Below, piece after piece: positions 38,284 to 56,406 of a stretch of 64,000 bases of DNA; within the stretch, counting starts at the first letter, position 1; each line of letters begins with the position of its first letter. The stretch is from Candidatus Eiseniibacteriota bacterium (GTDB lineage: Bacteria; Eisenbacteria; RBG-16-71-46). The stretch lies in NCBI GenBank assembly GCA_041483195.1, contig JBGPFC010000013.1, forward strand, positions 30,437-94,436. The letters run 5' to 3'. Both the position numbers and the translations under genes were made by a program. Below the pieces are notes generated by a model that was given only the letters and a program-made list of their open reading frames with translations, had not been told where the DNA came from and did not search any database.

Positions 38284-38284
38284 C

Positions 38285-38668: not shown

Positions 38669-38720
38669 CGCTGCCTCCAGTCCCTTGATCGGCACGACCT
38701 GTCTATCTTGAGCCGAACGC

Positions 38721-38935
38721 TTAGGCGATCTCCTCACGAATGATCGAGGGGATCAACTCGTGCACTCGCGCTTGAGCATCGGCGCGGATCATCGAGGCCA
38801 GGGAGCCGCCCGCTGAATCCCGGCTCGCACCAAGTTCCCTCGTTGGCTTGTCCCCGCGCCTCCGCTTCCAGATCGCGACCTCGGCGACCCCAAACTTCTT
38901 CAACGCTTGCGAGTAGGTGAGTCCGTCAAGGTTGA
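38721..38935 (-). pseudogene. Probable remnant of a small HTH protein gene
   Basis: LTYSQALKKFGVAEVAIWKRR resembles an HTH; ends ARVHELIPSIIREEIA; no independent start outside the upstream ORF. Confidence 0.35.
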
Positions 38936-38985
38936 TGGCCGCAAAATCCTTGCCCACCCCTGGTCGGCGCAAGGCCGTGCTCCGA

Positions 38986-39456: not shown

Positions 39457-39478
39457 GCGGAGATTACCCGGTGGGGGT

Positions 39479-40675: not shown

Positions 40676-40705
40676 CGAACGATGCCTCTCATGATGTCGC
40701 GCATG

Positions 40706-41533
40706 CTAGCACGCTCCCGCGAGGCGCTCCACGCCGCAGTACACGTTCATCCGGCCCTCGCGCAGGAATCCCACCAGCGTCATGCCGGCCGCGCTCGCGA
40801 GATCGATCGCGAGCGAGCTGGGCGCGCCGACCGCCGCCAGCACCGGGATGCGCGCGCGCGCCGCCTTGAGCACGATCTCCGCGCCGGCGCGGCCGCTCAC
40901 CCACAGCACGCCGCCGCGCGATGGATAGCGGCCGGTCTCGATCAGCACGCCGGCGATCTTGTCGACCGCGTTGTGTCGCCCCACGTCCTCGCGCAGCGCG
41001 ATCGGGGCGAGATCGTCGCCACAGAGCGCGGCCGCGTGCAGCCCGCCGGTGGCCGAGAACGCCACCTGGGAGTCGCGCAGACGCGCGGGCAATGCGGCGA
41101 GCGCTGCGGGATCGATGCTGCGCGTCACCTCGATCGGCGTGAGCCCCGCGCGCAGCGCGTCGAGGTGCGCGCGGCCGCACAGCCCGCACGCCGCGCTCGC
41201 CGCGAAGTGGCGCTCGAAGCGCGCCCAGTCCATCGGCACCCCGGGCGCGAGCCGGATCTCGACCGCATCGGGCTCGTCCGCGCAGGCCGCGGCATGCGGC
41301 TCGAGCGCCACGACCTGCTCGCGCCGCGCGATCAGCCCCTCGCCCGCCAGGAATCCGAGCGCGAGCTCCGCGTCGTGGCCGGGAGTGCGCAGCGTGACCG
41401 AGAGCGTGCGACCGTCCACCCGGATCTCGAGCGCGCCCTCGACCGCGACCGCGTCGTCGCTGCGCGTGATCGCGCCGCCCGCGATCCGCGTGACCGGCCG
41501 CGAGACCAGCTGCAGGCCGGATGCCTCGCTCAT
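40706..41533 (-). CDS. fdhD: Formate dehydrogenase accessory sulfurtransferase
   Basis: RTPGHDAELALGFL, ACGLCG, FSATGGLHAA, REDVGRHNAVDK, SGR and APSSLA motifs. Confidence 0.93.
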   Translation of the reverse strand: MSEASGLQLVSRPVTRIAGGAITRSDDAVAVEGALEIRVDGRTLSVTLRTPGHDAELALGFLAGEGLIARREQVVALEPHAAACADEPDAVEIRLAPGVPMDWARFERHFAASAACGLCGRAHLDALRAGLTPIEVTRSIDPAALAALPARLRDSQVAFSATGGLHAAALCGDDLAPIALREDVGRHNAVDKIAGVLIETGRYPSRGGVLWVSGRAGAEIVLKAARARIPVLAAVGAPSSLAIDLASAAGMTLVGFLREGRMNVYCGVERLAGAC

Positions 41534-41546
41534 CGCGGGATCCGGG

Positions 41547-42347
41547 CTACACCTTGACGTGATCGGTGTGCGTCGCGAAGCCGCCGCCCGCGAGCGGGAC
41601 CAGCGTGTAGTCGCCGAACAGCGATGGCGACTCGCGCTGCATGATGCGCAACATCTCGACCGCGACCTTGCGGATCTCGACGTCGGCGTGCTCGCTGCCG
41701 CGCAGCTCGATGAAGTGGCGCAGCGCGCGCGCGTTGCCGGTCACGAAGATCTTGGTCTCGGTGGCGTTGGGCAGCACCGATCGCGCGGCCTGCCGCGCGA
41801 GCTTGCGGCGCAGCGTGCGGTCCTGGACATCCGTGAACTTCTCGATCAGCCCCGCGACCAGCGCGTCGTACGCGCGCCGCGTGGCGTTCACCGCCTCGCA
41901 CCACGTCGCATGCAGCGCGGGATCGGCGGCGATCGCGTCGGGCTCGATGAAATCCGAGTCGGACTCGTCGACGTAGCGCTGCGAGAGCTGCGAGTACGAG
42001 AAGTGGCGGTGCCGGACCAGCTCGTGCGTGAACGAGCGCGACACGCCCGTGATCAGGAAGCTCCACACCGCGTGCTCCAGCACCGAGCCGTGCCCGACCT
42101 CGACGATGTGCTCGATGAACTCGCGATTGGTCTTGCGCCCCTTGCCGTACGACATGTAACAGACGCGCCCGGCCATCTCGGCGAGCTGCTCGGCCCCGAC
42201 TTCGGTGTCGGTCTTCCAGCTGACCTCGTGCTCCGAGAGAAAGCGCTCGACCTCGGCCGTATCGACGGTCTGGCGTCCCACGAGATGGATGCGCGGCTCG
42301 CGGACGATCTTGAGCTCTCGCTTCTCGGTCACTGCGGCCGTCTCCAT
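41547..42347 (-). CDS. thyX: FAD-dependent thymidylate synthase
   Basis: AGRVCYMS, GHGSVLEH, signature RHRHFSYSQLSQR and ARSVLPNATET; GAGGAG RBS. Confidence 0.96.
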   Translation of the reverse strand: METAAVTEKRELKIVREPRIHLVGRQTVDTAEVERFLSEHEVSWKTDTEVGAEQLAEMAGRVCYMSYGKGRKTNREFIEHIVEVGHGSVLEHAVWSFLITGVSRSFTHELVRHRHFSYSQLSQRYVDESDSDFIEPDAIAADPALHATWCEAVNATRRAYDALVAGLIEKFTDVQDRTLRRKLARQAARSVLPNATETKIFVTGNARALRHFIELRGSEHADVEIRKVAVEMLRIMQRESPSLFGDYTLVPLAGGGFATHTDHVKV

Positions 42348-42464
42348 GGCTGTCTCCTCGGGCGCATCGTGCGGTGGGCCGCGCTCATCGCGGGCGTCGT
42401 CGCGGCATTGGGGCGATTCGCCCCGCGCGCGGCACTGTAGCAAAGCGCGCGCGGGCGAGGAAGA
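42259..42464. repeat. thyX leader + 5' coding segment, copy 1 (direct repeat with 45165-45370)
   Basis: Manual ungapped alignment at offset 2906: about 23 mismatches in 206 bp. Confidence 0.93.
42433..42441 (-). promoter_or_regulatory. Putative extended -10 promoter of thyX (TGCTACAGT)
   Basis: TGnTACAGT on the minus strand about 85 bp upstream of the thyX ATG; lies in the block that is identical in both repeat copies. Confidence 0.55.
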
Positions 42465-42487
42465 AGCCCGGCCCCGCCGTGCCGGGC
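42460..42487 (-). terminator. Putative intrinsic terminator after the TBDR gene
   Basis: GCCCGGC-8nt-GCCGGGC stem followed by TTCTT on the minus strand, about 10 nt after the stop. Confidence 0.5.
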
Positions 42488-42496
42488 GACGCACCA

Positions 42497-44917
42497 CTAC
42501 CTCGGCACCGGCGCGTCCTGCTGCTGTTGCTCGCCGCTCTGGCGCCGCGGCTTTTCTTCCGGCGGCTTGCCCCACGTCCAGGTGAGCGTGAACGAGAACC
42601 AGTGCGATCCCCACTGAGTCGAGCTCGTCTGCGCGTACGCGCTGTCCCCGGTCGTGGTCACGAATCGGGCGACGTTGAACGGGTTGCTGATCCACAGGCT
42701 GGCCCATGCGCTCTTCCCAAGCTTGAGGCGCAAGCCCAGGCTCGAATAGGTGTACGCCGAGACGCGCCCCTGCGCGAGCGTCTGCGCCGGGCTGTAGCGC
42801 AGGTAGCCCTGCAGGTCGAGGCTCTTCGTCGTCTTGAACACGGCATTGCCGTTGGCGGACCAGTTGGTCGCCTCCCGCCGGAACTGGCCGGAGAGGTTGC
42901 CCGCGTCGTGGTGTTCGCGGTAGACGCTCACGCTCATCGTGCCCCCGAGCCGCTTCGTCTGCCGCAGCGACGCCGTGAGGCTCGTGCCGAAGAAGCGAAT
43001 CGACGACGCGTTCAGCCACGTCGTGGTCGCGACGCCTGCCGCGTCGACCCGCGTGACCCGATCCCAGTTGTCGACGGTCTCGCGATAGTAGGGCGACATC
43101 CGCAGCGAGCCGCGCCCGCCGGTCCAGCTCGCGTCGAGGCTGTACGAGTGCGTGTACTTGGGCTGGAGGTACGGATTGCCGACGAAGCGGTTGAGCGAGT
43201 CGCTCGATGGCACGTCGGGGTTCAGGTAGGTCGCCGGAGGGCGCTCGATCCGCTTCGAGTAGGTCAGCCGCAGGTTGCGGCCCCTGCCGAAGTCCCACGC
43301 CGCGTTCGCGCTGGGGAAGAGGCTCCGGTATTCGTTCTCGAACCGTTGTCCCGCCGAGCGCGCGTCGAACGTGCGGTGGGCGGCCTCGGCGCGGGCGCCG
43401 ACCTGCAGCGACAGTCGGCGGATGGTGGAGCCCAGCGTGAGGTAGCCCGAGTGGTAAACCTCGCGATGGGAGTAGTCGCTCGCGTCGCTCAGCGGCGTGG
43501 AAACGAGGCTGCCGTCTTCGAAGAAACTCAGGCCGCTGGAGTTCGTGGTGGTGCGGGCCGAGCCGCGGTAGCCGCTCTCGAGCTTGCCGTGTGCGCCGAG
43601 CGGATGCGTGTCGTCGATCTGAAGCGAGCGCTCGTGATCTCCGTACGCGCCCCGCTGCCGCGACGCCTGGTCGCCCCGGCCCGCTGGCACGAGCGTGCGC
43701 GAGAATCCAAGGTCGCGGTTCTCGTTGTCCGTGTCGCTCTGCATGAATTCGATCTCGCGCTCGTCCTTGCCCTGCGAGACGAGGTGCTGGAAGCCCAGCG
43801 TGACGGAGTTCGTGGAGCCGGCGTAGTGGCCGGCGGAGCTGCGGTCGTAGCGGCTGGTCGCGACCTGCGCAGAGTCCAGCACGGTGGAGTAGTGCGTGAG
43901 GGCGGCGTTGTCGCTGGCGTTGAGCGAGCTGTTGATCGTGCCGTAGAGCGTGGAGCGCTTGCTGAGCGCGTAGTCGAGCGAGGCGTCGAACGCGCCGTAC
44001 CCGCTCGTGAAGTCGTAGTTCGAGGCCGACCCGAACTCGTTCACCGGGCGCGCGAGCAGGTTCCGGCGCGCGACGCCGCTCTGGTACTCGTAGCCGCCCC
44101 GCGATCCGTACACCCCGCTGAACAGCGTCACCGGCCCCTTCTGCCACGCGACGCGCGCGCCCGGGCCGCTGTAACGCTGGCCCGTCGTCAGATTGACGTT
44201 CCCGCTGAGTCCCAGGTCGACGTTGTCCTTGAGCACGATGTTCACGATCCCCGCCGTGCCCTCGGGGTCGAACTTCGCGGATGGGTTGGCAATCACCTCG
44301 ATCCGCTCGATGCGGCTGGCCGGGAACTGGCGAAGGTAGGTGGTGAGTGCGTCGCCCTTCATCGGCGCCGCGCGGCCGTTGAACTGGATGTTGACGCTCG
44401 AGCTGCCGCGCAGGCTGACGTGACCATCGATGTCGACGTCCAGCTCGGGGACGGTGCGCAGGACGTCGGTCGCCGTGCCCGACGTGGCCGCTGGCATGTC
44501 TTTCGTGAGGTAGATATTCCGGTCCGCCGCGACGATCGCGGTCGCGGTCTCGGTGCTGACCGAGACGCCCGGGACCGCGATCGGGCTGACCGCCAGCGCC
44601 TGAGTGCCCAGATCGAGATCCGGCGCCTGCTCGCTGAGCACGAGGTCCGCGCGCGTGAGCGAAACGTGTCCGAGCAGCGAGGCGCGCAGCAGGTAGCGCC
44701 CGGGCGGCAGCCCATCGAGATGGATGTGGCCATCGGCGGACGTCGATGCGTGCGCGACCACCGTCGAATCCGCGGCGCGCCGCACGACGACCTCGACCCC
44801 CGCCAGCGGTGAGTTGGCCGGCTTCTCGACGAACACGCCGGTGATGCTGCCGGCGCGTGAGGCCGCGGGCGAAGCCGCGACCGTGACGACGGCGGCTAGG
44901 ACGAGGAGGCGGCGCAT
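42497..44917 (-). CDS. TonB-dependent receptor / outer-membrane beta-barrel family protein
   Basis: Signal peptide, carboxypeptidase-like N-domain, plug (DVLRTVP...VSLRG...IERIEVIANPSAKFDPEG), GNPYLQP, FSFTLTWTWG. Confidence 0.9.
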   Translation of the reverse strand: MRRLLVLAAVVTVAASPAASRAGSITGVFVEKPANSPLAGVEVVVRRAADSTVVAHASTSADGHIHLDGLPPGRYLLRASLLGHVSLTRADLVLSEQAPDLDLGTQALAVSPIAVPGVSVSTETATAIVAADRNIYLTKDMPAATSGTATDVLRTVPELDVDIDGHVSLRGSSSVNIQFNGRAAPMKGDALTTYLRQFPASRIERIEVIANPSAKFDPEGTAGIVNIVLKDNVDLGLSGNVNLTTGQRYSGPGARVAWQKGPVTLFSGVYGSRGGYEYQSGVARRNLLARPVNEFGSASNYDFTSGYGAFDASLDYALSKRSTLYGTINSSLNASDNAALTHYSTVLDSAQVATSRYDRSSAGHYAGSTNSVTLGFQHLVSQGKDEREIEFMQSDTDNENRDLGFSRTLVPAGRGDQASRQRGAYGDHERSLQIDDTHPLGAHGKLESGYRGSARTTTNSSGLSFFEDGSLVSTPLSDASDYSHREVYHSGYLTLGSTIRRLSLQVGARAEAAHRTFDARSAGQRFENEYRSLFPSANAAWDFGRGRNLRLTYSKRIERPPATYLNPDVPSSDSLNRFVGNPYLQPKYTHSYSLDASWTGGRGSLRMSPYYRETVDNWDRVTRVDAAGVATTTWLNASSIRFFGTSLTASLRQTKRLGGTMSVSVYREHHDAGNLSGQFRREATNWSANGNAVFKTTKSLDLQGYLRYSPAQTLAQGRVSAYTYSSLGLRLKLGKSAWASLWISNPFNVARFVTTTGDSAYAQTSSTQWGSHWFSFTLTWTWGKPPEEKPRRQSGEQQQQDAPVPR

Positions 44918-44921
44918 GGGG

Positions 44922-45157
44922 TCATGGCCGGGCCCCCGCCTTCGCGACCTCGTCGCGCACGCGCTTCATCACCAGCTCCACCTCGTCGTCGTGCGTGTAG
45001 AAGTGCGGAGCGAGGCGCAGGCCGACGCCCGGGCGGAAGTCTAGCAGCACGTCGTCGGCCAGCAGCGCGGCGCACACCGCGTCGGCGTGCGGCACGTCGA
45101 GCACCACGGTGCCGCCGCGGAGCGCGTCCCCGAGCGGCGAGGTGACGCGCAGGCCGT
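44922..45157 (-). pseudogene. Orphan 3' fragment of the kynureninase-like gene (repeat of 53467-53687)
   Basis: 44937-45157 aligns ungapped with 53467-53687 (offset 8530, about 7 mismatches in 221 bp); ends VAKAGARP-stop, 4 nt before the TBDR ATG. Confidence 0.92.
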
Positions 45158-45164
45158 CTTGCCG

Positions 45165-45370
45165 GTATCGACGGTCTGGCGTCCCACCAGGTGGATGCGC
45201 GGCTCGCGCACGATCTTGAGCTCTCGGGTCTCGGTCGTTTCGGCCGCTGCCATGGCAGTCTCCTCGGGCGACTTGTGCAGTGGGCCGCGCTCTTCGCGCT
45301 CGTCATCGCGGCGGTGGGGCGAATCGCCCCGCGCGCGGCACTGTAGCAAAGCGCGCGCGGGCGAGGAAGA
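45165..45370 (-). pseudogene. Orphan thyX promoter/leader + first about 30 codons, copy 2
   Basis: Encodes MAAAETTETRELKIVREPRIHLVGRQTVDT versus METAAVTEKRELKIVREPRIHLVGRQTVDT in thyX; similarity stops abruptly. Confidence 0.92.
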
Positions 45371-45669
45371 CGCCAAGCAACCGGGGGACGTATCCATTCT
45401 GATTTTCAAGAGGGCGGAGGGCTCAGGGCCACGGCCCGGGACTGAACGCATCCGGAATTGCCATAATTTCAAGATCCTCTTCGGACAGATCGCCAAGCCC
45501 ATCGGATCGAGGGCAGAATCCCGGCGCGTGAGCCCCCTACGCCCCGGTGTTCAATGCGGCAATGATTTCGAGGAGGTGGTCGCCGGCCTTGGTTCTCAGC
45601 CTGAGCCTGTGAAATCTGTTCGTCACGAGCACCCCTTCGCGAGAGGGGGAGAACGAGTCACCCACCGAA

Positions 45670-45733
45670 CCGATGCTCCGCCGATGCACCGCCGATGCTC
45701 CGCCTTCTGCGATGATGCATCGTGCGCTATAGT
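45670..45733 (+). promoter_or_regulatory. Three tandem 11-bp repeats CCGATGC(T/A)CCG followed by a TATAGT -10 box
   Basis: Units at 45670, 45681 and 45692; TATAGT at 45728-45733, upstream of the DUF4236/TerY-P-like genes. Confidence 0.55.
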
Positions 45734-45795
45734 GTTCCAGCTAGCGTGTTGCTGCACGCGGGTTTTCCCGTGCTCATCCTGCGAGGAGCGCTTTC

Positions 45796-46122
45796 GTGGG
45801 TTGGCGTCTGCGCCGAGTATTACAGGCAGGTCCGTTTCGCGCGAATCTCTCGCGGAGCGGCGTTGGATGGAGTGTGGGAATCCCGGGGCTGCGCTATGGT
45901 CGCTCTCCAACCGGCATTCCCTACGTTTCGGTCGGCATTCCCGGAACCGGCGTCTACTTCATCAAGTACTTTGGACGCAGATTTCCATCAGCCACTCATC
46001 CCTCACTCGTGCCGCCCCCCGTGCTCTCGGGCCCTGCGGCCAAGACTCAACCACCAGCCAACGGCCCGAAGGCATCTACCCCTTGGTGGCGGTCATTCCG
46101 AAATCCCCCTGGAGCGCCCTAG
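45796..46122 (+). CDS. DUF4236-domain protein
   Basis: GAGGAG RBS, GTG start; GWRLRR...GPFRANLSRSGVGWSVG...GIPGTGVYF pattern. Confidence 0.8.
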   Translation: MGWRLRRVLQAGPFRANLSRSGVGWSVGIPGLRYGRSPTGIPYVSVGIPGTGVYFIKYFGRRFPSATHPSLVPPPVLSGPAAKTQPPANGPKASTPWWRSFRNPPGAP

Positions 46123-46142
46123 ACAAACCGCATGGAGGCCGT

Positions 46143-46979
46143 ATGCCCTACTCGGCAGAGATCAGCCGCGTACACCCGGGTTGCTTTCTCTTTCTCATCG
46201 ATCAGTCCGGCTCCATGCAGGATCCGATTCCTGATGGCACCGGACAACGAAAGAGCGAAGTCGTCGCGACGGCTCTGAATCGGCTGCTCCAGGAGCTGTC
46301 GCTTCGCTGCGCCCGCGAGGAGGGCATACGCGACTACTTCAATGTCTCTGTTCTCGGCTACGGCGCCTCAGTCGGTCCAACTCTCAGCGGGACACTGTCG
46401 GGGCGTGACATTGTGAAGCTGAGTGAAATTGCAAACGCGCCAGCCCGGATCGAGGATCGAACGAAACGCGAGTCCGACGGGGCGGGTGGCGTCTTTGAGC
46501 GTCCCATCAAACTGCCAATCTGGCTCGACCCTGTAGCCAATGGCGGCACGCCGATGACTGAAGCGCTGCGGCGAGGCACGGACATTCTTCGGGGCTGGGT
46601 CGACCAGAATCCTGCGTCATTTCCCCCGGTGGCCCTAAACCTGACCGATGGCGAGGCAACAGACGGCGATCCCACTGCCCAAGCCACTCAGCTAGCTTCC
46701 CTCGCGACCAACGATGGCCCGGCCATGCTCTTCAATCTCATGGTGTCCTCGGCTGGGGGCCAGCCGATCGTGTTTCCCGACAACGAGGGATCTTTGCCAA
46801 ATGACTACGCGAAGATGCTCTTCCGAATCTCGAGCTACCTGACCGATGCGATGCGCAACTATGCCCGCAGTCAGGGACTCTCAGCCACAGATGCCTCGAA
46901 GGGACTCGTGTACAACGCCGACGTTGTCTCTATCGTCCAGTTCTTGGACATTGGCACTCGCGGAACCGACTTGAGGTGA
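46143..46979 (+). CDS. vWA (TerY-like) domain protein
   Basis: GGAGG RBS; MIDAS DQSGS, GGTPM and TDG motifs. Confidence 0.85.
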   Translation: MPYSAEISRVHPGCFLFLIDQSGSMQDPIPDGTGQRKSEVVATALNRLLQELSLRCAREEGIRDYFNVSVLGYGASVGPTLSGTLSGRDIVKLSEIANAPARIEDRTKRESDGAGGVFERPIKLPIWLDPVANGGTPMTEALRRGTDILRGWVDQNPASFPPVALNLTDGEATDGDPTAQATQLASLATNDGPAMLFNLMVSSAGGQPIVFPDNEGSLPNDYAKMLFRISSYLTDAMRNYARSQGLSATDASKGLVYNADVVSIVQFLDIGTRGTDLR

Positions 46980-47773
46980 CGGCGTTGTCGTGCCGGGTTG
47001 TCACTTTGACGGTGGAGAAGGCTGGGAACAGGGCAGGACAATCGGATGACGCGGCTTGGCCGGCTCCCGCCGCGTACCCCCGCGACCTCCTGGAGCCGCA
47101 GGTCCGACTGGCGCTCGCCGACGGGGCAACTGAGAGTTACCTCGCCGGGCAATGGGCGCAGGTCCTCGTAGGCCAAGTCGGAGCAGACAAGCGAGCCCGA
47201 GTAGTCGACGCAGTTCAGTCGGCCCGAAGAAGATGGACTGGGCTTGTCGCCGACTATGTCGCCGACCGCGTCAAAACGTCGCGTCCGCTGCAGTGGTATG
47301 AAGAGCCAGCAATCGAGAGAGGTGCGGGAGCCACGCTCTTGGTTGTCGATCTCCACTTTCCCGGCGAACAAGCACGCCCTGCGAAGTGGAAGGCCTGCGC
47401 CATTGGAGATTCATGTGTCTTCATCGCCCGTGAGGGGCGTTTGGCGCGCCGCTTTCCCATGATGGCAAGTGCGGACTTCGGGACGCGACCGACTCTGGTG
47501 AGTTCACTGCAGACCGACCCCCTGATGCTGATCAAGCACATGCGGCACGCTCATGGGACCTGCCTTCCTGGGGACAACATGCTGCTGATGACAGATGCGC
47601 TTGCTCAATGGCTTCTTGATAGACCCCATCACCGTCGGGCGCGCGTCGGCGCCTGTCTGCGATGGCTCGAGGAGGCGCAGCCCGATGCTTTTCTCACTTG
47701 GATCACGGAATTGCGCGAGGCCGACGACCTGCGCAACGACGACACCACGCTGATACTCGTATCTATCGGCTAG
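46976..47773 (+). CDS. PP2C-like phosphatase (TerY-P type)
   Basis: GTGA overlap with vWA stop; SDDA, ALADGATES, AIGDSC, MTDAL and NDDTT motifs. Confidence 0.85.
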   Translation: MTALSCRVVTLTVEKAGNRAGQSDDAAWPAPAAYPRDLLEPQVRLALADGATESYLAGQWAQVLVGQVGADKRARVVDAVQSARRRWTGLVADYVADRVKTSRPLQWYEEPAIERGAGATLLVVDLHFPGEQARPAKWKACAIGDSCVFIAREGRLARRFPMMASADFGTRPTLVSSLQTDPLMLIKHMRHAHGTCLPGDNMLLMTDALAQWLLDRPHHRRARVGACLRWLEEAQPDAFLTWITELREADDLRNDDTTLILVSIG

Positions 47774-47816
47774 GACCACTGGAGGACGCAGGCTGACGGT
47801 TGGCCTGCGCGAGGCG

Positions 47817-50111
47817 ATGCCGGAGTCCAAGCGCACGATAACCTGTCCACGTTGCGGGCGAGCGCTCCGCGTCCCAAGCGGAATGGGCACACTCCGTGTG
47901 CGTTGCGTGGCGTGTAGTCACGAATTCGCTTGGTCCCCCCGACCAGCGGTAGTTCAGCTCCCGACCATCAGTGAGTACCGTGACGCGGTCTCCGACCCGT
48001 CCCACGCGTTTCGTGACGGAAGTCTACGCGCCTCGCGCCCGTTCACGGACAATCTTGGAATGCCCAAGGCGGTGAGTGGGAATTTTGCCGCCGTATTTCG
48101 GCTCTCCAACGACGCGGCGCCCGCCTACGCGGTCAAGTGCTTCACGCGGGCCGTCGAGAATCAACAGGCTCGCTACGCGGCCATCGCGCAAGCGCTCGAA
48201 CGCCTTTCTGTGCCATGGAGAGTCGCGTTCGAACACCTTCCCGAAGGTGTGCTGGTCCGCGGACAGTGGTTCCCGGTCCTGAAGATGGAGTGGATAGAGG
48301 GCAAGGGGCTACTTCAATACATTGATGTCCACGCATCGGAACGCACCCGTATGCTCGACCTCGCGCAGCGCTTCACGGCGATGACGCAGGACCTTGCGGC
48401 AAGCAATCTCGCGCATGGAGACTTGCAGCATGGCAACCTCATCATCTGCCCGGATGGCACCCTGAAGTTGGTCGACTATGACGGCATGTTCGTCCCCGGG
48501 TTGGAGCTGTTCGGAGCGAGCGATTGCGGTCATAGGCACTACCAGCCACCATCGCGGCGCCTGTCCGACTATGACGCGACTCTGGATCGGTTCTCGAGCT
48601 GGGTGATCCTCTGGTCACTCCTAGCAATCGCGGTGGACGGTGACATCTGGCGGGCAGTGCGGACTGAGGGAGTCGAGGCCATTCTCCTCCAGGAAGCCGA
48701 CTACGTTGACCCAGAGAGGTCAACAACCCTGTCAGTAATGCGCGACGGGGGCCAGAAACTACTGACGGGGATCGCCGACCAGATTTTGAAACTTGTCCGT
48801 ACGCCGCCGACCGCTATTCCGCCGCTAAGCGAATCCAGCCTCCCAACGCTTGCCCGCGAGATCCTGTCCAACCGGATTCCCTCTGTTTCTCGCATTCCTC
48901 CCTGGATCAAAGGTGGATCAGATCAGGCCGAGGGAGGTGGGGGCGCGGCAGTCTGGATGGAGTCGCATCTGGGAGCGCCCCTGCTGAGGCGATTCTCGGA
49001 CATCACACCAGTCATCCGGTGGTGCGTTCGACTTGGCATAGGGCTCGATGTAGCCGCGTCGGCAGGGTTCCTGTTCTTGCTGTCGCTCGCGCGTGCGGAG
49101 GCGCCTGCAGTCGGCACAGGCGTGCTTGCGCTGAGCGCAACCATCCTCGCGACTGTTGTGGCGCGCTATCAGCGAAGCCCGGAAAGACGGGAGAAACGCG
49201 TGCGGATACGGACCCTTGCTGACAAACGCAGGGCACTCGCGACTCTCACCGCACGAGTCTCGGAGCTCGATATCCAACTTGCCGGGCTGGGAGCATCAGA
49301 GGCGAAGGCGACGGAAGCGAACGAGATCAGGAAAAGGGCACTCGCGGCGGAAGAGACCCGCAAGCTCAAGGAAGCTGGCGACAGGCGAACCAAGGCCATT
49401 GTTGAAGCGGAACGCCAACTGTCTATCTTGACGACAGAGGAGATTGACGAACGCGCCAAGGCACTCAGTGCGCTTCGGGAAGCGCACGTTGCCGAGAGGC
49501 TCACACAGTACGATTTGTGGTCGGCGAGCGTCCCGGGGCTTGGCGACACGCTCAAGCCACGATTGGTTGCAGCTGGCTTGCGCACCGCCGCAGATTTCGT
49601 GGGAGTGTCGGCGACGACCTCCTACTCTGGGCGATACGCGAACACCAGGGCCTCCATCCGACTTAGAGGTGGCAGCACAATCTTCGTCGATGGCATCGGT
49701 CCCGCAAAGGCGGAGGCTTTGGATGCTTGGCGCGAGAAGTGTCGGCGGATCGCGCTTCATTTTGCTCCATCGCAGCTTTCTGGGGACGCTTCTGCCGACA
49801 TTGGTCGCAAGTACCGAGCCTCCCGAGATCCGCACGAAAGCAAGAGACAAGAAGCCGACAGCCTGCACTCGCGCGAGGTCGCGCGAGTGCGGGATGAGTC
49901 AACGAAAACGAGAATGGAACTGGAGGGTGAGCTTCGAGACTCAAGGGCGCAGCGAGAGAGACAGCGGGGCAACTCCAAAGCCGCTCGGGCAGAGGCTGAG
50001 AGGACAATGGCAGGAGCCCGCTGGGCCGCAATGCAGCATGAAAGAGAAGCGACGGCCTACAACGGAATCTCCTTCAAGCGTTACCTGAGAGAACTACTGT
50101 TTTCGACGTAA
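47817..50111 (+). CDS. Atypical Ser/Thr kinase with N-terminal Zn ribbon, two TM helices, coiled coil and HhH-like motifs
   Basis: CPRC...CVAC; SGNFAAVF, AVKCF, HGDLQHGN and VDYDG; VPGLG and VDGIGPAKA HhH-like motifs. Confidence 0.85.
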   Translation: MPESKRTITCPRCGRALRVPSGMGTLRVRCVACSHEFAWSPRPAVVQLPTISEYRDAVSDPSHAFRDGSLRASRPFTDNLGMPKAVSGNFAAVFRLSNDAAPAYAVKCFTRAVENQQARYAAIAQALERLSVPWRVAFEHLPEGVLVRGQWFPVLKMEWIEGKGLLQYIDVHASERTRMLDLAQRFTAMTQDLAASNLAHGDLQHGNLIICPDGTLKLVDYDGMFVPGLELFGASDCGHRHYQPPSRRLSDYDATLDRFSSWVILWSLLAIAVDGDIWRAVRTEGVEAILLQEADYVDPERSTTLSVMRDGGQKLLTGIADQILKLVRTPPTAIPPLSESSLPTLAREILSNRIPSVSRIPPWIKGGSDQAEGGGGAAVWMESHLGAPLLRRFSDITPVIRWCVRLGIGLDVAASAGFLFLLSLARAEAPAVGTGVLALSATILATVVARYQRSPERREKRVRIRTLADKRRALATLTARVSELDIQLAGLGASEAKATEANEIRKRALAAEETRKLKEAGDRRTKAIVEAERQLSILTTEEIDERAKALSALREAHVAERLTQYDLWSASVPGLGDTLKPRLVAAGLRTAADFVGVSATTSYSGRYANTRASIRLRGGSTIFVDGIGPAKAEALDAWREKCRRIALHFAPSQLSGDASADIGRKYRASRDPHESKRQEADSLHSREVARVRDESTKTRMELEGELRDSRAQRERQRGNSKAARAEAERTMAGARWAAMQHEREATAYNGISFKRYLRELLFST

Positions 50112-50406
50112 GCGTGTATTGTGAGAGGTTTCGGAGACGTAATCCCGCTTGGCGTTGCATCAACGATCGCTGCTGGGTTGGGACTCCTGCCGATGCCTTC
50201 GGGGTGTGCCCTACAGAATCTCGCATTCGTGTCGGACAATTGCGAAGGAAATGCATGGGCGCATCGCGCGTCGGGCCGTCCATGCCATCGGCCCCGTCAC
50301 GGGGCTTGGGAGCGAGCGCGGGACACGGCGCGGGTGAATCCGTCCTGGGGCTCCAAGGCGAAGGCCGTCGCGACCGGCGACGGCTGCCACCTTCTGAACG
50401 ACGCGT

Positions 50407-51612
50407 CTAGAGTGCGGACCACTTTCGCCGAAGGATGGGGCCGCGCGTGTCTGAGAGCCTGACGAGCCCGGCGCGATTCACGTCGAGGATGTCTTCGAAA
50501 CTGCGGCCCTGAGCTCGCACGCCGGCGGCAGCGAGCCGCCGGAGGAGGGCTTGAGCCTGATCGAGAAGGTCCCTGTGCGAAGTCACGGTTGCGTCGAAGG
50601 TGTCCTTCTCAGCCGAAATCGCTTGGTGACGCAAAGATGTTAGGTAGTGACGGAACGCAGCTTGTTCTGTGAATTGCATGGAGGAAGGTTGCGCTCCAGC
50701 GAACAGCGGCGCCACATAGCTCGTACTAATCCCCGGCCCGGGCAACATCGCGGCGAGCACTCCTTGCGCGTGCGCAAAGTCGAGGAACGGTATCTGGTAT
50801 TCAGACAGTGCCTGAGGGCAGTAGTACCAGGTTGAGCGCTGCCTGTTCTCATCCTCGTCCGGGCTCTGGAACTTGTCCGGCGGGAACGAGCGCACGTTCA
50901 TCCACGTTCCCGAGCAAATCGCTGTGGCCCGTGTGGTGGAAGCGAGGAGCATCTGCTGGTTGCAATAGCCGACAATCACGCGGGCACCGCGGAGGCGGAG
51001 ACCCGCGAGGAGATCGAGCACGTTCGACAACCAGATGGGGTCGTCGGAGAGATACCTACCGGCCGGATGCTCGCACACGACGTAATAGCCTGCGGGCGTC
51101 CACCCAGCCGTCCTCTCAAGGAGTGCTCCCATCTGGGCGGTGTTCCGAGACGCATCAGCGCCAAGCGCGATCGTCTGAATCAGCGGAAGTTCGCTATCCT
51201 GGGCTTGGGCCTCCTCGAGCGTCGCGCGTTGGGTTTCAAGCCAGTCATCATCCGCTGCTCCGGCTAGGATCCCGGGGAGAATGAACGCCGATGCCCCAAG
51301 CGCCCGGTTTAGTGCGAGGAGTCTTGAAATGAGCGTCGCCAGGGGCGGGCCATCCCAGAAAGCCCCGGTTTGGTAGTCGGCCGGCCAGTAATCGTGTGTG
51401 CGAAGTCTTTCGTGATCTGCGTGGGGGAGGTAGAACTGAGGATCTAGGAGCACTACTCCGCCGGGTAGTGCTCTTACCTGGCCCGCGAGTCGTGTGAGCT
51501 GCTGCGCCGTCAAGTCGCGAGGGCTCAAGACGACGGTGCCGCCTCCCCATTCGGTAAGAAGGTGGCGGGTGTGCTCCATCATCCCGTGGCCGAATTGCAG
51601 GTAGAGGTCCAT
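50407..51612 (-). CDS. Uncharacterised 401-aa alpha/beta protein (possible TIM-barrel), third gene of the nuclease-kinase operon
   Basis: Long ORF; alternating short hydrophobic strands and helices (LYLQFGHG, VVLSP, LLDPQFY, FILP, YYVV, VIVGY, ICSG); start at ATG 51612 inferred. Confidence 0.7.
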   Translation of the reverse strand: MDLYLQFGHGMMEHTRHLLTEWGGGTVVLSPRDLTAQQLTRLAGQVRALPGGVVLLDPQFYLPHADHERLRTHDYWPADYQTGAFWDGPPLATLISRLLALNRALGASAFILPGILAGAADDDWLETQRATLEEAQAQDSELPLIQTIALGADASRNTAQMGALLERTAGWTPAGYYVVCEHPAGRYLSDDPIWLSNVLDLLAGLRLRGARVIVGYCNQQMLLASTTRATAICSGTWMNVRSFPPDKFQSPDEDENRQRSTWYYCPQALSEYQIPFLDFAHAQGVLAAMLPGPGISTSYVAPLFAGAQPSSMQFTEQAAFRHYLTSLRHQAISAEKDTFDATVTSHRDLLDQAQALLRRLAAAGVRAQGRSFEDILDVNRAGLVRLSDTRGPILRRKWSAL

Positions 51613-51679
51613 TAGAGTCCGTGCTCGAGGAGAGGCAGAGGCAAGGGTCTTCTCCAGGCAGAGTCGTCCCAATCGGCGC

Positions 51680-52531
51680 TCACTTTGCGCATATCTCCCG
51701 CATCCAGGCAAGAGCCTCCGCCGCGGCATCTGGCCGATGGTCGCGGCGTTTCTGAGTCATCGCTGAAACGAGTTCGGCGAACTGCTCCGCCTGCGGGAAC
51801 GAAAGCGCCAATCGGGGCAGGGGCTGAGCCTCGACGCGGGTGACGATCTCGAGTGGATTTGAAGCTCCTGTAATGAATGGATTTGAACCGGTCGCGCATT
51901 CGAAGAGGGTCACGCCTAGCGCAAAGAGATCCGATCGGGCGTCGATGTCGAGCTTTACGTTCCGGCACTGTTCTGGAGGAGCATAACCCCAGGTGCCCCT
52001 CCCGAATGGCGCGTTTGACTGCGTCATGGATTCGAGCTGCAGGTGACGAGCGATGCCGAAATCGAGGACCCAGAAGTCCCCCGCTGGCGTGCAGATCAAG
52101 TTTTCAGGTTTGATGTCGCGGTGGACGATCTTCACTCGCTCAGCGTCGGCGAGAACCTCAAGCACGTGAACGCCGAGACGCAAGACAGTTGAGGAGGGGA
52201 GCGCGCCTGAGTGCAGGCACTGACGCACCGTTTGTCCATCGATGCGCTGTTCCCTCACCCATACGCAGTCGCCGATCTGGGTCGGCAGCGTGCCCTGACC
52301 AAAAATGCGTGGAACGCGGCTCGACTGGACTTGTTCCGTGGCAAGGATTTCTCGGCGAATGCTCTCGAAGCCCTGCTGGGGATGGATGACCTTGAGCACG
52401 ACGGGGCCATCGGTTGGATGGGCTGCCGCGAAGACGAGTTTGAACGTGCCTCTGTCTAGCGGGGTAAGACCCGAGAGGTCGGGGAACTGGGCGCTTAGCC
52501 AAGCGAGATCTACTTGGGGCGTGCCGTTCAC
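51680..52531 (-). CDS. Stand-alone Hanks-type Ser/Thr protein kinase
   Basis: RGTFKLVF, VLKVI, HRDIKPEN, DFG, GTWGYAPPEQ and SDLFALG motifs; GTGA overlap with the upstream gene. Confidence 0.92.
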   Translation of the reverse strand: MNGTPQVDLAWLSAQFPDLSGLTPLDRGTFKLVFAAAHPTDGPVVLKVIHPQQGFESIRREILATEQVQSSRVPRIFGQGTLPTQIGDCVWVREQRIDGQTVRQCLHSGALPSSTVLRLGVHVLEVLADAERVKIVHRDIKPENLICTPAGDFWVLDFGIARHLQLESMTQSNAPFGRGTWGYAPPEQCRNVKLDIDARSDLFALGVTLFECATGSNPFITGASNPLEIVTRVEAQPLPRLALSFPQAEQFAELVSAMTQKRRDHRPDAAAEALAWMREICAK

Positions 52532-53253
52532 GCGCGGCCCTTCGCGTCAATCGTAGCGGCCCGCCAAGCCCACTCGTTGAAGAGCCACGAGGCGTAGGAG
52601 CGGGGCAATCTGGCGGGACCAAGCGACGGGGCGTCCAAGTAGGCATCGTCTCTTGACCACACGCCGATTCCGGATGCATTTGCCGCCTCCTGAAACTTGG
52701 AGTCTCTTGGCAAACGAGGGAAAAGGACAAAGGAATTCGATGCGAACCAGAAGTTCTGCCGGGCCTGGTCAAGGGCAGCGCCCCACTCGCTGATTTTCGC
52801 CTCAATCGCGATTATGTGTCTTGCGGCGAACACAGCGGAGAGGGCTCGCGGGACCCACTCGTCCGCGACCAATCGAATCATGTCCGCCGCTTCGAGGCGC
52901 TCCAGAGCTTGCGGTAGTTGCTTGGGGAAAAAGCGCTCAAGATCCTCTTCGTCTTGGGGCCCCATGATTGCGAGGTAGTGCATCAGCCGCAGGTCGCCAT
53001 TGGTGAGATCCAGCCGAGAGGGACTCCACTTTCGAGTCACAGCTTCATTCCAGAGTACGAGAACGAGGTCCGGGACTCCGGAATCGAGCTGCGGCTCGCA
53101 GAAAAGCGTTGCGCGGCAACCGCGGGGGATTCGGATCGGTTCTCGCTCGATGAACCACTCAATCAAGTCACGCTCGGGACCGGGGCGATGAGCACGGAAA
53201 GTCGCGCCGAAGTCGATTGGGGCAAGCTTTCGGTCCATCAAAGTGAGAGCCAT
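52528..53253 (-). CDS. PD-(D/E)XK nuclease-like protein with inserted winged-helix-like segment
   Basis: GGAGGAG RBS; E...GVPDLVLV...IIAIEAK...ALDQA motif set; intervening LRLMHYL...QALERLEAADMI resembles a wHTH. Confidence 0.7.
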   Translation of the reverse strand: MALTLMDRKLAPIDFGATFRAHRPGPERDLIEWFIEREPIRIPRGCRATLFCEPQLDSGVPDLVLVLWNEAVTRKWSPSRLDLTNGDLRLMHYLAIMGPQDEEDLERFFPKQLPQALERLEAADMIRLVADEWVPRALSAVFAARHIIAIEAKISEWGAALDQARQNFWFASNSFVLFPRLPRDSKFQEAANASGIGVWSRDDAYLDAPSLGPARLPRSYASWLFNEWAWRAATIDAKGRA

Positions 53254-53457
53254 TCTCCTCCCTATGGTCTCGCATGCTCTACGCCGTCGAGCCTGATTCA
53301 ACTCAGTACTCCCATGAGATGATCTGGAGCACACCCACATCGGTCTGCGATCTGTATTCTGCCTTCCCTCGGCAGCGTGTTCTCGACGTCGGCTCCCGTC
53401 GCTGCGCGATTTGATTACCGCGAGGAGACCGGTCTGATCGGTTTGTTCGGCGCCCCG

Positions 53458-54666
53458 CTAGCCGTTCGCCTTCGCGACCTCGTCGCGCACGCGCCTCATC
53501 ACCAGCTCCACCTCGTCGTCGTGCGTGTAGAAGTGCGGGGCGAGGCGCAGGCCGACGCCCGGGCGGAAGTCGAGCAGCACGTCGTCGGCCAGCAGCGCCG
53601 CGCACACCGCGTCGGCGTGCGGCACGTCGAGCACCATGGTGCCGCCGCGGAGCGCGTCCCCGCGCGGCGAGGTGACGCGCATGCCGTACTCGTCCGCGAG
53701 CGCGATCATGCGCGCGGTCTGGCGCAGCGACTTCTCGCGGATCGCGTCCACGCCAATCCGCGCGATGATCTCGTAGCCGGGCCGCGCGGCCATGAACGCC
53801 GGGATCGCCGGGGTTCCGGTCCAGAACCGGCGCGCGCCGGGGTCGCGGCGGGTCGGGCCGGGGTCGAAGTCGAACGGGCGCTCGTGCGCCATCCATCCGG
53901 TGAGCGCGGGCTCGAGCCGGTCGCGCACGCGCGGGCTCACGTAGAGGTACCCCGCGCCCGGCCCGCCGCACAGCCACTTCACGGAGCCGCCGCTCAGCAT
54001 GTCGATCCCGAGCGCGGCCACGTCCACCGGCACCGTGCCCACCGACTGGTAGGCGTCGATCAGCGTGAGCGCGCCGGCCTCGCGCGCGCGGCGCGCGATC
54101 GCGCCGACGTCGAGCACGCGCGAGCTGCGGAACAGCACGTGCGAGATCGCGACCACGGCGGTGCGCTCGTCGATCGCGGCGAACAGGTCGGCCTCGTCGA
54201 CGGTGTGGCCGTCGCGCGATGGGACGCGCACGATCTCGGCCCCGCGGCGCGCGAGGCCCTCGTAGAGGTAGAGCACCGACGGAAAATCATCGGCGGTGCA
54301 CACCAGCCGGTTGCGCGGCGGCGCGAACGGGATCGCCGAGAGCGCGATCGCCTGCGCCATGGTGACGTTCTCGCACATCGAGACCGTGCCGGGCTCCGCG
54401 TGGAGGATGCCCGCGAGCAGGTCGCCGATCTCGGTGGGGAGCGCGAACCAGCTCTCCCCCCACGCGCGGATGCCGCGCGCCTTCCAGGTCTGCGCGTAGA
54501 GGCGCAGCGCCTCCTCGACCCCGCGCGGCATCGCGCCCAGCGAGTGCGAGATGAAGTGCAGCGTCGCCTCGACCGTCGGGAATTCCGCGCGCCACTCGAG
54601 CAGCCGATCGGTTTTCGCGGGGGCCGCACCGCCGGTGCGGACGCCGCCCTCCGAGATCTCCCGCAT
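53458..54666 (-). CDS. Kynureninase-like PLP-dependent enzyme (aminotransferase class V)
   Basis: SHSLGAMP, DFPS, IDAYQSVG, GGSVKWLCGGPG, GWMAH and LRLAPHFY motifs. Confidence 0.85.
   Translation of the reverse strand: MREISEGGVRTGGAAPAKTDRLLEWRAEFPTVEATLHFISHSLGAMPRGVEEALRLYAQTWKARGIRAWGESWFALPTEIGDLLAGILHAEPGTVSMCENVTMAQAIALSAIPFAPPRNRLVCTADDFPSVLYLYEGLARRGAEIVRVPSRDGHTVDEADLFAAIDERTAVVAISHVLFRSSRVLDVGAIARRAREAGALTLIDAYQSVGTVPVDVAALGIDMLSGGSVKWLCGGPGAGYLYVSPRVRDRLEPALTGWMAHERPFDFDPGPTRRDPGARRFWTGTPAIPAFMAARPGYEIIARIGVDAIREKSLRQTARMIALADEYGMRVTSPRGDALRGGTMVLDVPHADAVCAALLADDVLLDFRPGVGLRLAPHFYTHDDEVELVMRRVRDEVAKANG
53467..53687. repeat. 3' end of the kynureninase-like gene, direct repeat with 44937-45157
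   Basis: About 7 mismatches in 221 bp by manual alignment. Confidence 0.93.
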
Positions 54667-54667
54667 C

Positions 54668-55255
54668 TCAGTGACTACCGCGCGCCGCGCCAACCCCGGC
54701 GAGCGCCCACTGCGCGGCCTGCTCCGGCGTCGAGGCCACCCGCACGTGGTCGAAGAGATGCGGCAGCACGCGGTCGGGATGGCGGTGCGCATCGAGATAG
54801 TCCGCCCAGTGGTCGCCGAGCAGCACCAGCGGCGCGGACGAACGGCCTCCGGTCGAGAGCAGCGTCCAGGTGAGGAACAGCTCGGTGAGCGTGCCGATGC
54901 TTCCGGGCAGCGTCACGAATCCGTCCGCGCGCTCGACGATGTGGCGGAGGCGCTCGTAGAGGTCGGGGGTGTGGACGCGCTCGCGCACCCACGCGTTGGC
55001 GGGGCCGCGCTTCTCGAACAGCTCGACGGTGACGCCCACCACGTGTCCGCCGGCCTCGGCGGCGCCGCGCGAACAACCCTCCATCGTGCCGCCGTAGCCT
55101 CCGGTCATCACGCCCGCCCCGGCGCGCGCGATGGCCGCGCCCAGCGCGTACGCGAGCGCGTACGCCGGATCGCCCTCGCGCACCGCGCTGCTGCCGAACA
55201 CGGCGATCAGCGGGCGGGCGGCGCCGGGCGGGACATTCGCAGCCGAGCGTTCCAT
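54668..55255 (-). CDS. LOG family protein (nucleotide phosphoribohydrolase-like)
   Basis: AVFGSS, TGGYGGTMEG and LPGSIGTLTE motifs. Confidence 0.88.
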   Translation of the reverse strand: MERSAANVPPGAARPLIAVFGSSAVREGDPAYALAYALGAAIARAGAGVMTGGYGGTMEGCSRGAAEAGGHVVGVTVELFEKRGPANAWVRERVHTPDLYERLRHIVERADGFVTLPGSIGTLTELFLTWTLLSTGGRSSAPLVLLGDHWADYLDAHRHPDRVLPHLFDHVRVASTPEQAAQWALAGVGAARGSH

Positions 55256-55314
55256 GGCCGAGCATTGTGACACGAACTCGACGCGCTCAACCAGTGCCGC
55301 TTAGACTGCGGCGC

Positions 55315-55683
55315 ATGCTCCGGGACGAGTTCGCCGAGGTGCGGGTGCACGCGGAACCCGGCCGACTCGCCGAAGGCGCGGGCGTTCGCTTCGGCGTGGT
55401 GGTCGAGGGCGTCGCGCGCGACGCCTTCGCGGTGCGCTATCGCGGGCGGTGGTTCGCGTACGTGAACGTCTGCCGTCACCAGTTGCAGCCGCTCGATTTC
55501 GGCGACGCGCACTTCTTCGACGATGCGTTCGACGCGCTGGTGTGCTGCCATCACGGGGCGCGCTACCGGCCCGAGACCGGCGAGTGCTTCGATGGCCCCT
55601 GCCGCGGCGCTCGGCTCACCGCGCTCGCGCTCGAGACGCGCGACGGCGCGCTGTGGTGCGTGGGGCTGCGGGCCGAGGGCTGA
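55315..55683 (+). CDS. Rieske [2Fe-2S] domain protein
   Basis: CRH...CCHHG Rieske ligands, GECFDGPC; start 55315 (or 55267). Confidence 0.88.
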   Translation: MLRDEFAEVRVHAEPGRLAEGAGVRFGVVVEGVARDAFAVRYRGRWFAYVNVCRHQLQPLDFGDAHFFDDAFDALVCCHHGARYRPETGECFDGPCRGARLTALALETRDGALWCVGLRAEG

Positions 55684-55734
55684 AGCGGGCGTCGCCGCGG
55701 CGCCCGGGGCGTCATCGCCGCGACGCCAGCGGCT

Positions 55735-56406
55735 TCACCCCCGCGGCGTGTTGCGGTTCACGACGACGCCGCGATCGGCGACGTCGAGGTAGCCCACCAG
55801 CCGCGCGTTGCGGCGGATCGCGTCGCTCAGGCTCTCGGCGACGCGATCCTCCGCGATCGCGTGCGCGAGCGCGGGCGACAGCACGACCGGGTGCCCGCGC
55901 CGCCCGTGAAAACGCGGGACCAGCGCGTAGCAGAATCGCGAGCGCTCGCGCGCGCTGCGGCACGCCGCGAGCGCATCGAGCATGACCTGGGCGAGGCTCG
56001 CGACGGTGAAGGACCGCACCGCCGGATGATCGACCGGCAGCACCATCACCCCAGCTGGCTTGAGCTCCAGCGCGTCCTCGAGCCCGATCCGCACCGAAGA
56101 CAACATGCCGTGTCGCCAGCGCGGGTTGAACGTGAAGTGCACCTCGAGCCCGTTCGCGCCCTTGCGGCGCGCCTGCACCAGCTCGTCGCGCAGCCGGCCG
56201 CTCGCCACCAGCGCCTCGAACTCGCCCTGCGCCTGCCGCTTGATCGCGGCCGCTCCCGCGCCGAGCACCACCACCACCGCGTCGCAGGCTCCCCACAGGT
56301 GACGCACGCCGTTCGCGAGGAACGAGTCGCGGCCCTCCCGCACCGTCGCCTTGGGCGTTCCCATCCGGGTGGATGCCCCGGCCGCCAGCAGCACGCCCGC
56401 CATCAT
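55735..56406 (-). CDS. MocA/MobA-like nucleotidyltransferase (molybdenum cofactor cytidylyltransferase-like)
   Basis: LLAAGASTRMGTPKA, NPRWRHGMLSS, PVDHP and GHPV motifs; follows xdhC. Confidence 0.85.
   Translation of the reverse strand: MMAGVLLAAGASTRMGTPKATVREGRDSFLANGVRHLWGACDAVVVVLGAGAAAIKRQAQGEFEALVASGRLRDELVQARRKGANGLEVHFTFNPRWRHGMLSSVRIGLEDALELKPAGVMVLPVDHPAVRSFTVASLAQVMLDALAACRSARERSRFCYALVPRFHGRRGHPVVLSPALAHAIAEDRVAESLSDAIRRNARLVGYLDVADRGVVVNRNTPRG

Follow-up and report, generated by a model that had tools for sequence, protein, structure and literature searches.

A conserved gene trio encoding a nuclease, a protein kinase and a transglycosylase-fold barrel, probably an undescribed defence system, in a low-GC island of a Candidatus Eiseniibacteriota bacterium

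We analyzed three adjacent genes, here called ORF1, ORF2 and ORF3 (ORF, open reading frame), on a contig of a Candidatus Eiseniibacteriota bacterium (GenBank assembly GCA_041483195.1, contig JBGPFC010000013.1, positions 30,437 to 94,436 of the forward strand). This whole stretch of 64,000 nucleotides is referred to as the window, and coordinates are those of the window unless another locus is named. The original prediction, made from the sequence alone, was that the three genes encode a nuclease, a Ser/Thr kinase and an alpha/beta protein of a candidate undescribed defence system. The trio is arranged as follows:

52528..53253, minus strand: ORF1, 241 aa; PD-(D/E)xK nuclease in which a winged helix separates the PD motif from the EAK motif and the C-terminal helix, YASWLFNEWAW, is conserved
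51680..52531, minus strand: ORF2, 283 aa; minimal Hanks-type Ser/Thr protein kinase
51613..51679, minus strand: spacer between ORF2 and ORF3, 67 nt, read from the sequence
50407..51612, minus strand: ORF3, 401 aa; TIM barrel with the tRNA-guanine/deazaguanine transglycosylase fold, extended at the C-terminus by a hairpin and helices; the sequence family is new

The three co-oriented minus-strand genes were found at the predicted positions and in DNA of the predicted non-host composition, with a GC content of 0.61–0.65 over 45–53 kb as compared to 0.68–0.76 (approximately 0.71) over most of the window. ORF1 starts with an ATG at 53253, preceded by GGGAGGAG, and its stop codon ends at 52528; a longer frame is available from 53340, and the homologues (233–260 aa) align from the start at 53253. 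The GTG start codon of ORF2 at 52531 overlaps the ORF1 stop codon as GTGA, an overlap that can be read directly in the sequence. The 401-aa form of ORF3 starts with an ATG at 51612 (N-terminus MDLYLQFGHG); its homologues among the matches listed are mostly 400–403 aa, with some of 419–438 aa. At other loci ORF2 and ORF3 overlap by as much as 4 nt or are separated by up to about 80 nt. The trio totals 925 residues in three proteins. A promoter/terminator scan found no promoter-like site and a single terminator-like site, located inside ORF1, which is fewer than in shuffled sequence. The three frames do not arise by chance, since at least 1079 homologues of ORF3 and at least 211 of ORF1 exist.

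The original prediction depended on the co-occurrence of homologues in a conserved order, and this order was found wherever it could be read. ORF1-ORF2-ORF3 follow one another in all 20 related loci that have upstream DNA, these being 12 genome contigs, 4 plasmids and 4 contigs from IMG/VR. The genome count of 12 of 12 leaves out L003, where the contig is cut at the match, and includes L012 as a decayed copy with frameshifts. The 13 genome loci come from Planctomycetota, Myxococcota, Acidobacteriota, Actinomycetota, Nitrospirota, Chloroflexota, Desulfobacterota-type metagenome-assembled genomes (MAGs) and others. All four plasmid records with an ORF3 relative (two from Bacillus, one from Polaromonas and one haloarchaeal, from Natribaculum) contain the trio in order, and the trio is present in all four IMG/VR contigs. 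A profile of ORF3 matched 989 clusters at 50% identity (E-values up to 0.001). Within the host phylum, one genome of 206 had a full-length ORF3, and the three other genomes of the genus had none. These data show that the three genes are passed on together in bacteria and on at least one plasmid of an archaeon, and that the trio is horizontally mobile and patchily distributed.

The search of the host-phylum genomes also returned two remote ORF3 relatives (E about 1e-13), each located directly 3' of a gene with a Pkinase domain. At G007 (L036:5502-8249), the kinase and barrel genes share one strand, and a 201-aa relative of ORF1 is convergent, overlapping the 3' end of the barrel gene by 56 nt. 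This nuclease has no winged helix insert, carries the motif FECKLKEW...QAARYQFFA, and is found near genes for an Mrr_N protein and a C5-methylase/NgoMIV pair. The remote kinase-barrel pair at G135 (L037:74-1342 and 3165-3896) has a 204-aa kinase without an N-lobe and is flanked by proteins of 423 aa and 243 aa that match neither a known family nor the ORF1 profile; these may be alternative partners. Two copies of the trio are decayed. L012, from a Chloroflexia MAG, has several frame breaks in ORF3 and only partial matches to ORF1 and ORF2, and in L041, a Bacillus bombysepticus plasmid, ORF3 is split and annotated as two genes.

ORF1 gave chance-level rows only when compared with Pfam, PADLOC, NCBIfam and PHROGs. 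Because Foldseek also gave no row below an E-value of 0.001 against the Protein Data Bank (PDB), it was necessary to compare its AlphaFold2 model (predicted local distance difference test, pLDDT, 92.3) with solved structures by VIA-align, a structural aligner independent of Foldseek. The best match was to the nuclease NucS (2vld; Z score 10.3, 95 residues aligned, root-mean-square deviation 2.3), followed by Cdn1 (10.1), VC1899 (9.9) and Can2 (9.5). A restriction-endonuclease fold, the absence of which would have counted against the original prediction, is therefore present. Residues 71–145 were covered in the same analysis by winged helix-turn-helix (wHTH) domains of the MarR/ArsR type, and a sequence profile search of the PDB also matched this stretch weakly to wHTH regulators. 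Within an alignment of 28 homologues, E53, P61, D62, E151, A152, K153, Q163, N167, W169 and the YASWLFNEWAW helix are invariant or nearly so, and P61-D62, E151-A152-K153 and Q163 are identical in all 28. ORF1 thus joins a restriction endonuclease-like fold to invariant D62, E151 and K153 residues, as found in the PD-(D/E)xK superfamily. The PD...E-A-K residues, the downstream Gln and the inserted wHTH-like segment had each been read from the sequence, and we find the residues invariant and the insert folded as a winged helix.

ORF2 matched Pkinase over residues 27–269 of 283 with an E-value of 5.4e-22 and a score of 78.9 bits, as compared to a cut-off of 31.7, and the Pfam scan found no other domain. 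The VAIK-Lys, HRD, DFG and APE motifs of Hanks-type kinases are intact. K47, E61, HRD137-139, N144, DFG157-159, E187, D201 and R266 do not vary among the 12 sequences compared, and neither do T170 and T180 of the activation segment. ORF2 is thus the minimal intact Hanks kinase that had been predicted. A potential complication is that the PADLOC models for the defence system PD-T4-6 match ORF2 (the best, PDLC04042, with an E-value of 1.7e-42 over positions 16–270 of 292), and on this account an automatic run might label the gene PD-T4-6. The likeness is one of kinase domains. PADLOC lists PD-T4-6 as one protein, a stand-alone kinase, whereas ORF2 is accompanied by the same nuclease and barrel genes in 20 of 20 loci. 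In addition, a profile built from the ORF2 family gives its true members 273–387 bits, whereas the PD-T4-6 model gives ORF2 144 bits.

ORF3 had been described as a protein of alternating beta and alpha elements marked by several short motifs, and a TIM-barrel-like sensor or nucleic-acid-modifying subunit was proposed. The motifs are present, several of them invariant, and the AlphaFold2 model (pLDDT 88.7, predicted template-modelling score 0.90) shows a beta/alpha barrel of eight strands, after which come a hairpin at residues 262–273 and helices. All of the top 50 Foldseek matches were entries for tRNA-guanine transglycosylase (TGT), with a best E-value of 5.5e-6. VIA-align ranked five transglycosylases highest: ArcTGT (Z 20.4, 305 residues aligned, root-mean-square deviation 3.3), TGT (18.6), QTRT2 (16.1), DpdA (7ui4; 14.7) and Cap10 (13.8). 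Unrelated generic barrels scored below all five, at 13.5 or less. The barrel, the C-terminal hairpin and the helical extension of the TGT family are thus all present in ORF3, which is a TIM barrel with the fold used by nucleic-acid base-exchange enzymes.

Conservation in ORF3 points to a pocket. In an alignment of 29 sequences the invariant motifs are Q6-F7-G8, S30-P31-R32-D33, D57 and Q59, G235-T236-W237, and W262, Y264 and P266. A core of Q6, G8, L29, S30, P31, D57, P58, P113, Y177, L205, V212, G235 and R241 is kept even in very distant homologues, an archaeal one included. The invariant residues are found at the C-terminal ends of the barrel strands. The catalytic aspartate pair of TGT is Asp102/Asp280 in the numbering of the Z. 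mobilis enzyme. Going by strand order and not by superposition, D57, at the end of strand 3, would correspond to the position of the TGT motif TDSGGFQ.

The relationship to transglycosylases is confined to the fold. ORF3 had no family match in Pfam (E-values up to 0.1), PADLOC, NCBIfam or PHROGs, and PDB chains searched by sequence and by profile yielded nothing beyond chance matches (DnaB, antibodies). Within its own genome, PF01702 matched only the canonical TGT on contig C10, not ORF3, and PF14350, the family of TIM-B barrels discussed below, had no match. The ESM Atlas yielded only unnamed 'hypothetical protein' clusters. The viral structure library BFVD gave weak rows for ORF3 (best E-value 2.2e-4), with the beta protein of phage P4 absent from the 50 matches listed, and a tblastn search of a phage GenBank collection gave no match for ORF3. 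By these searches, ORF3 is a family of its own at the sequence level.

We also predicted the structure of the three proteins as a complex. The interface between ORF3 and ORF1 plus ORF2 reached an ipSAE score of 0.83 in each of three runs, as compared to 0.00, 0.00 and 0.46 for controls. The ipSAE mark is reached by 116 of 157 solved complexes and by 2 of 215 mismatched pairs, a calibration that applies only roughly here because our own alignments and three chains were used. The runs shared at least 93% of contacts, with a pLDDT of at least 90 for the partners. In the predicted complex, residues 162–169, 204 and 388–396 of ORF3 contact the kinase C-lobe at 237, 253–267 and 276, so that the kinase is held by the C-terminal helix and helix 158–168 of ORF3. 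Residues 260–261, 273–279, 302–315 and 364–366 contact the nuclease at 57–59, 86–97, 108–111, 162–169 and 219–221, so that the nuclease is held by the hairpin region and the 302–315 loop. These predictions support a heterotrimer in which ORF3 would lie centrally, between nuclease and kinase. The hairpin side is where the transglycosylase family positions its macromolecular substrate (10.64898/2026.10.19.760177). The seating of the nuclease on this surface suggests a protein partner for ORF3 rather than DNA.

The closest parallel in organization is with the TIM-B systems and the gop-beta-cII locus of phage P4, as described in the available part of an October 2026 preprint (10.64898/2026.10.19.760177). 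In these systems a TGT-fold barrel (PF14350) is encoded downstream of varied effectors, together with a nuclease, and is proposed to restrain the effectors; in P4, beta restrains the Gop toxin. In the trio, likewise, the gene for a TGT-fold barrel with a C-terminal hairpin and helix directly follows an effector gene, and a PD-(D/E)xK nuclease is encoded alongside. The kinase-barrel order is found at every locus, and the nuclease lies upstream or, in G007, is convergent with the barrel gene and overlaps it, an arrangement that cII also has in P4. A setting among defence genes and mobile elements is common to both. The proteins themselves differ. ORF3 does not match PF14350 and gave hhalign probabilities of 0.1–0.2%, and it lacks the His and Cys that are conserved in the Beta_protein consensus. 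ORF1 shows no profile match to P4 cII by hhalign and carries a wHTH insert, whereas the cII-type nuclease, in the available part of the preprint, has helical extensions with a C-terminal HeH domain (10.64898/2026.10.19.760177). The TIM-B partners given in that part of the preprint do not include a protein kinase. The partnering of a TGT-like barrel with effectors is therefore no longer a wholly new idea, a similar logic being described there.

Comparison with the transglycosylase systems gave a similar picture. TGT/ArcTGT/QTRT2, DpdA and Cap10 are the five top structural matches of ORF3, clearly above generic barrels, whereas ORF3 lacks the family's HMM (hidden Markov model) or profile similarity, its Zn motif and a second invariant Asp. 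The partners in the trio are not DpdB/C, Cap9/QueC or a CD-NTase, which distinguishes it from Dpd and from CBASS with Cap10. PADLOC gave no Dpd match for ORF1 or ORF3; the DpdE models matched only in L002 and L013, where they recognized the SNF2 helicases of adjacent systems. No named trio of this kind is present in PADLOC-DB 2.0.0 (2023), Pfam, NCBIfam or PHROGs. The original prediction that the genes match no named system thus holds for ORF1 and ORF3 in PADLOC-DB 2.0.0 and needs qualifying for the kinase, which matches the PD-T4-6 models. No description of the trio was found in the literature covered, a body that excludes the supplementary neighbourhood tables of the TIM-B preprint, in which kinase-linked barrels are possibly listed.

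To place the trio in its genomic setting, we scanned the flanks of the 13 genome loci for known defence proteins. PADLOC defence proteins were found within 6 kb of the trio at 6 of these loci:

L002 flank: PLD-helicase and PDC-S02 (PADLOC)
L005 flank: AbiU, PsyrA and type IIG restriction-modification (R-M) (PADLOC)
L006 flank: type I restriction endonuclease (PADLOC)
L008 flank: AbiEi/AbiEii (PADLOC)
L011 flank: type IIG/DrmMI, JAB and E1-E2 (PADLOC)
L013:1-12783: BREX locus in the order BrxC, PDC-S70-like, PglXI, trio, BrxHI, PglZ, BrxA (PADLOC)

ORF3 of L013 appears to be split by a frameshift near residue 80. Pfam adds ParE, HNH, HSDR_N, HicAB and an IS integrase at four further loci, and in L045, an IMG/VR contig, the trio lies amid genes for Ant (anti-repressor), baseplate, a toxin-repressor pair and a methyltransferase. 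Within the window itself, the trio shares its 8.5-kb low-GC island with a complete and convergent TerY-P triad (46143–50111):

46143–46979 (start approximate), plus strand: TerY vWA protein (PADLOC, 3.9e-97)
46976–47773, plus strand: PP2C protein of TerY-P (PADLOC, 6.3e-30)
47817–50111, plus strand: STK_OB kinase of TerY-P, 764 aa, with an N-terminal zinc ribbon (PADLOC, 9.5e-67)

The defence-island context expected from the original prediction is thus found, both here and at the six other loci, and the trio is at times located in the accessory regions of prophages. TerY-P resembles the trio as a kinase-containing three-gene defence system of the same island, whereas its components (a vWA protein, a PP2C protein and a kinase with a large C-terminal part) are unrelated to those of the trio. 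We considered TerY-P as a part of the trio system and rejected this; by tblastn it is absent from all 13 other loci, which makes it an independent neighbour.

The trio is probably an undescribed defence system. The explanation that we favor, with some confidence, is that it is a horizontally mobile three-protein module for defence against phages or mobile elements, possibly acting by abortive infection. In a mechanism of this kind the conserved pocket of ORF3 (Q6, S30-P31, D57-P58-Q59, G235, N239 and R241) would bind or transfer a nucleobase-type ligand, a step that may sense infection or keep the partners silent. The kinase would be either the switch or an additional effector, with a partner or proteins of the host and phage as its phosphorylation targets. 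The wHTH-bearing PD-(D/E)xK nuclease would then cut DNA, such that the phage is stopped or the infected cell killed. The gene layout parallels that of P4 gop-beta-cII and TIM-B, where the barrel is proposed to restrain an effector.

Several observations weigh against such a role. The residue D57 is the sole invariant carboxylate of ORF3, distant homologues included, which makes a classical two-Asp base exchange doubtful; the barrel might instead bind a ligand or catalyse another reaction. The TGT alignment has an invariant zinc motif CxCxxC...H (C296, C298, C301 and H327), whereas no Cys is invariant or nearly so among the 29 aligned ORF3 sequences, and the zinc site is accordingly absent. The hhalign probability was 0.2% for ORF3 against a 9-sequence TGT alignment, 0.1% against P4 beta and 0.2% against a 21-sequence Beta_protein (PF14350) alignment, negatives that, like that of ORF1 against P4 cII, come from insensitive tests because the templates are single-sequence or of low diversity; nor did ORF3 show sequence or profile similarity to DpdA-type TGTs. 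The identity of ORF3 across phyla, 45–65%, is unusually high for a defence gene. No PADLOC match was found in the flanks of 7 of the 13 genome loci, and because no control flanks were scored the enrichment in defence islands is described here, not measured. In the complex prediction, the control that scored 0.46 was the one in which the kinase was replaced. The predicted interface excludes the kinase active site and the catalytic residues of the nuclease, and is therefore silent on which protein regulates which.

A bolder form of the proposal, which we advance tentatively, is that ORF3 founds a new branch of TGT-fold enzymes, for which the target of nucleobase attachment or exchange would be a protein partner (nuclease or kinase) or nucleic acid. 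The trio might then be an immune switch that joins nucleobase transfer and Ser/Thr phosphorylation to license a DNA nuclease; it would be distantly related to P4 gop-beta-cII, or have converged with it, and would extend across bacteria and archaea.

Two other interpretations of the trio are unlikely in our judgement. ORF3 might be a DNA transglycosylase like DpdA that marks host DNA with a deazaguanine-type base, with ORF1 restricting unmarked DNA by means of its wHTH and the kinase tuning the balance between them, much as in an R-M system. ORF3 does share the fold of DpdA and TGT (Z 14.7 for DpdA, 7ui4), its obligate companion is a nuclease that carries a DNA-binding insert, and deazaguanine precursors are available because the host genome has QueC and a canonical TGT. 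However, no DpdB/DpdC, QueC or other precursor genes were recognized among the flank ORFs of the 13 loci, and ORF3 lacks a Zn site and has a single invariant Asp. ORF3 is also highly conserved, whereas modification enzymes that determine specificity usually vary. In the complex prediction, moreover, the nuclease occupies the surface of ORF3 that corresponds to the site of the macromolecular substrate in TGT-family enzymes (10.64898/2026.10.19.760177), which suggests a protein partner rather than DNA.

It is just as doubtful that the trio is a toxin-antitoxin or addiction module with the kinase, the nuclease or both as the toxin and the barrel as the antitoxin, the function being to stabilize plasmids, prophages or islands rather than to act against phages. 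The presence of the trio on plasmids and prophage-like contigs would fit this, as would the frequency of toxin-antitoxin genes among its neighbours, the predicted binding of ORF3 to both partners, and the parallel with P4 gop-beta-cII, where beta restrains the Gop toxin (10.64898/2026.10.19.760177). Most copies, however, are found on chromosomes, next to R-M, BREX or Abi genes. This interpretation overlaps with the defence module that we favor, since addiction and defence by abortive infection are not mutually exclusive. A housekeeping or stress operon for DNA repair or nucleoside salvage, with a NucS-like nuclease and a glycosylase-like barrel acting on damaged bases under kinase control, would accord with NucS/EndoMS, a repair nuclease, as the best structural match of ORF1, with the action of the TGT fold on N-glycosidic bonds and with the high conservation of ORF3, but is very improbable given the presence of full-length ORF3 in 1 of 206 phylum genomes and 0 of 3 others of the genus, the foreign composition, the direct repeats that flank the island, and the occurrence of the trio in prophage, plasmid and defence contexts.

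The trio is best filed with the emerging class of TGT-fold-barrel immune modules. It would add to this class a second family of TGT-fold barrels that is linked to immune effectors but unrelated in sequence, and would strengthen the idea, emerging from Cap10 and TIM-B, that immunity is regulated by enzymes of base transfer. Should the trio prove to act against phages, it would be a widespread addition to the immune repertoire, found in many bacterial phyla and on a haloarchaeal plasmid. The logic of kinase, nuclease and barrel is directly testable because the system is small, its predicted architecture is confident and its catalytic residues are clear, the candidates being D62, E151 and K153 of the nuclease, K47 and D139 of the kinase, and D57 and R241 of the barrel.

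Two copies of a 221-nt direct repeat, 97% identical and 8530 nt apart, bracket the low-GC island of TerY-P and the trio:

44937..45157: left copy of the 221-nt direct repeat (repeat family D1), bounding the island
53467..53687: right copy of the 221-nt direct repeat (repeat family D1), forming the 3' end of a minus-strand gene (53458–54792), which the left copy duplicates

No integrase was recognized among the six island ORFs scanned against Pfam and PADLOC. An Rfam scan around the island matched no family, and ARAGORN found no tRNA gene in 40000–56000. A second pair of repeats, 217 nt long and 88% identical, lies at 42252–42468 and 45158–45374 and copies the 5' region of a thyX-like gene; its copy at 45158–45374 directly abuts the 221-nt repeat at 44937–45157. 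Both repeat pairs suggest that an ancestral junction was copied on insertion of the island and of a TonB-type receptor gene (42497–44917). Another stretch of low GC content (0.595–0.637) is present at 37000–40000 of the window.

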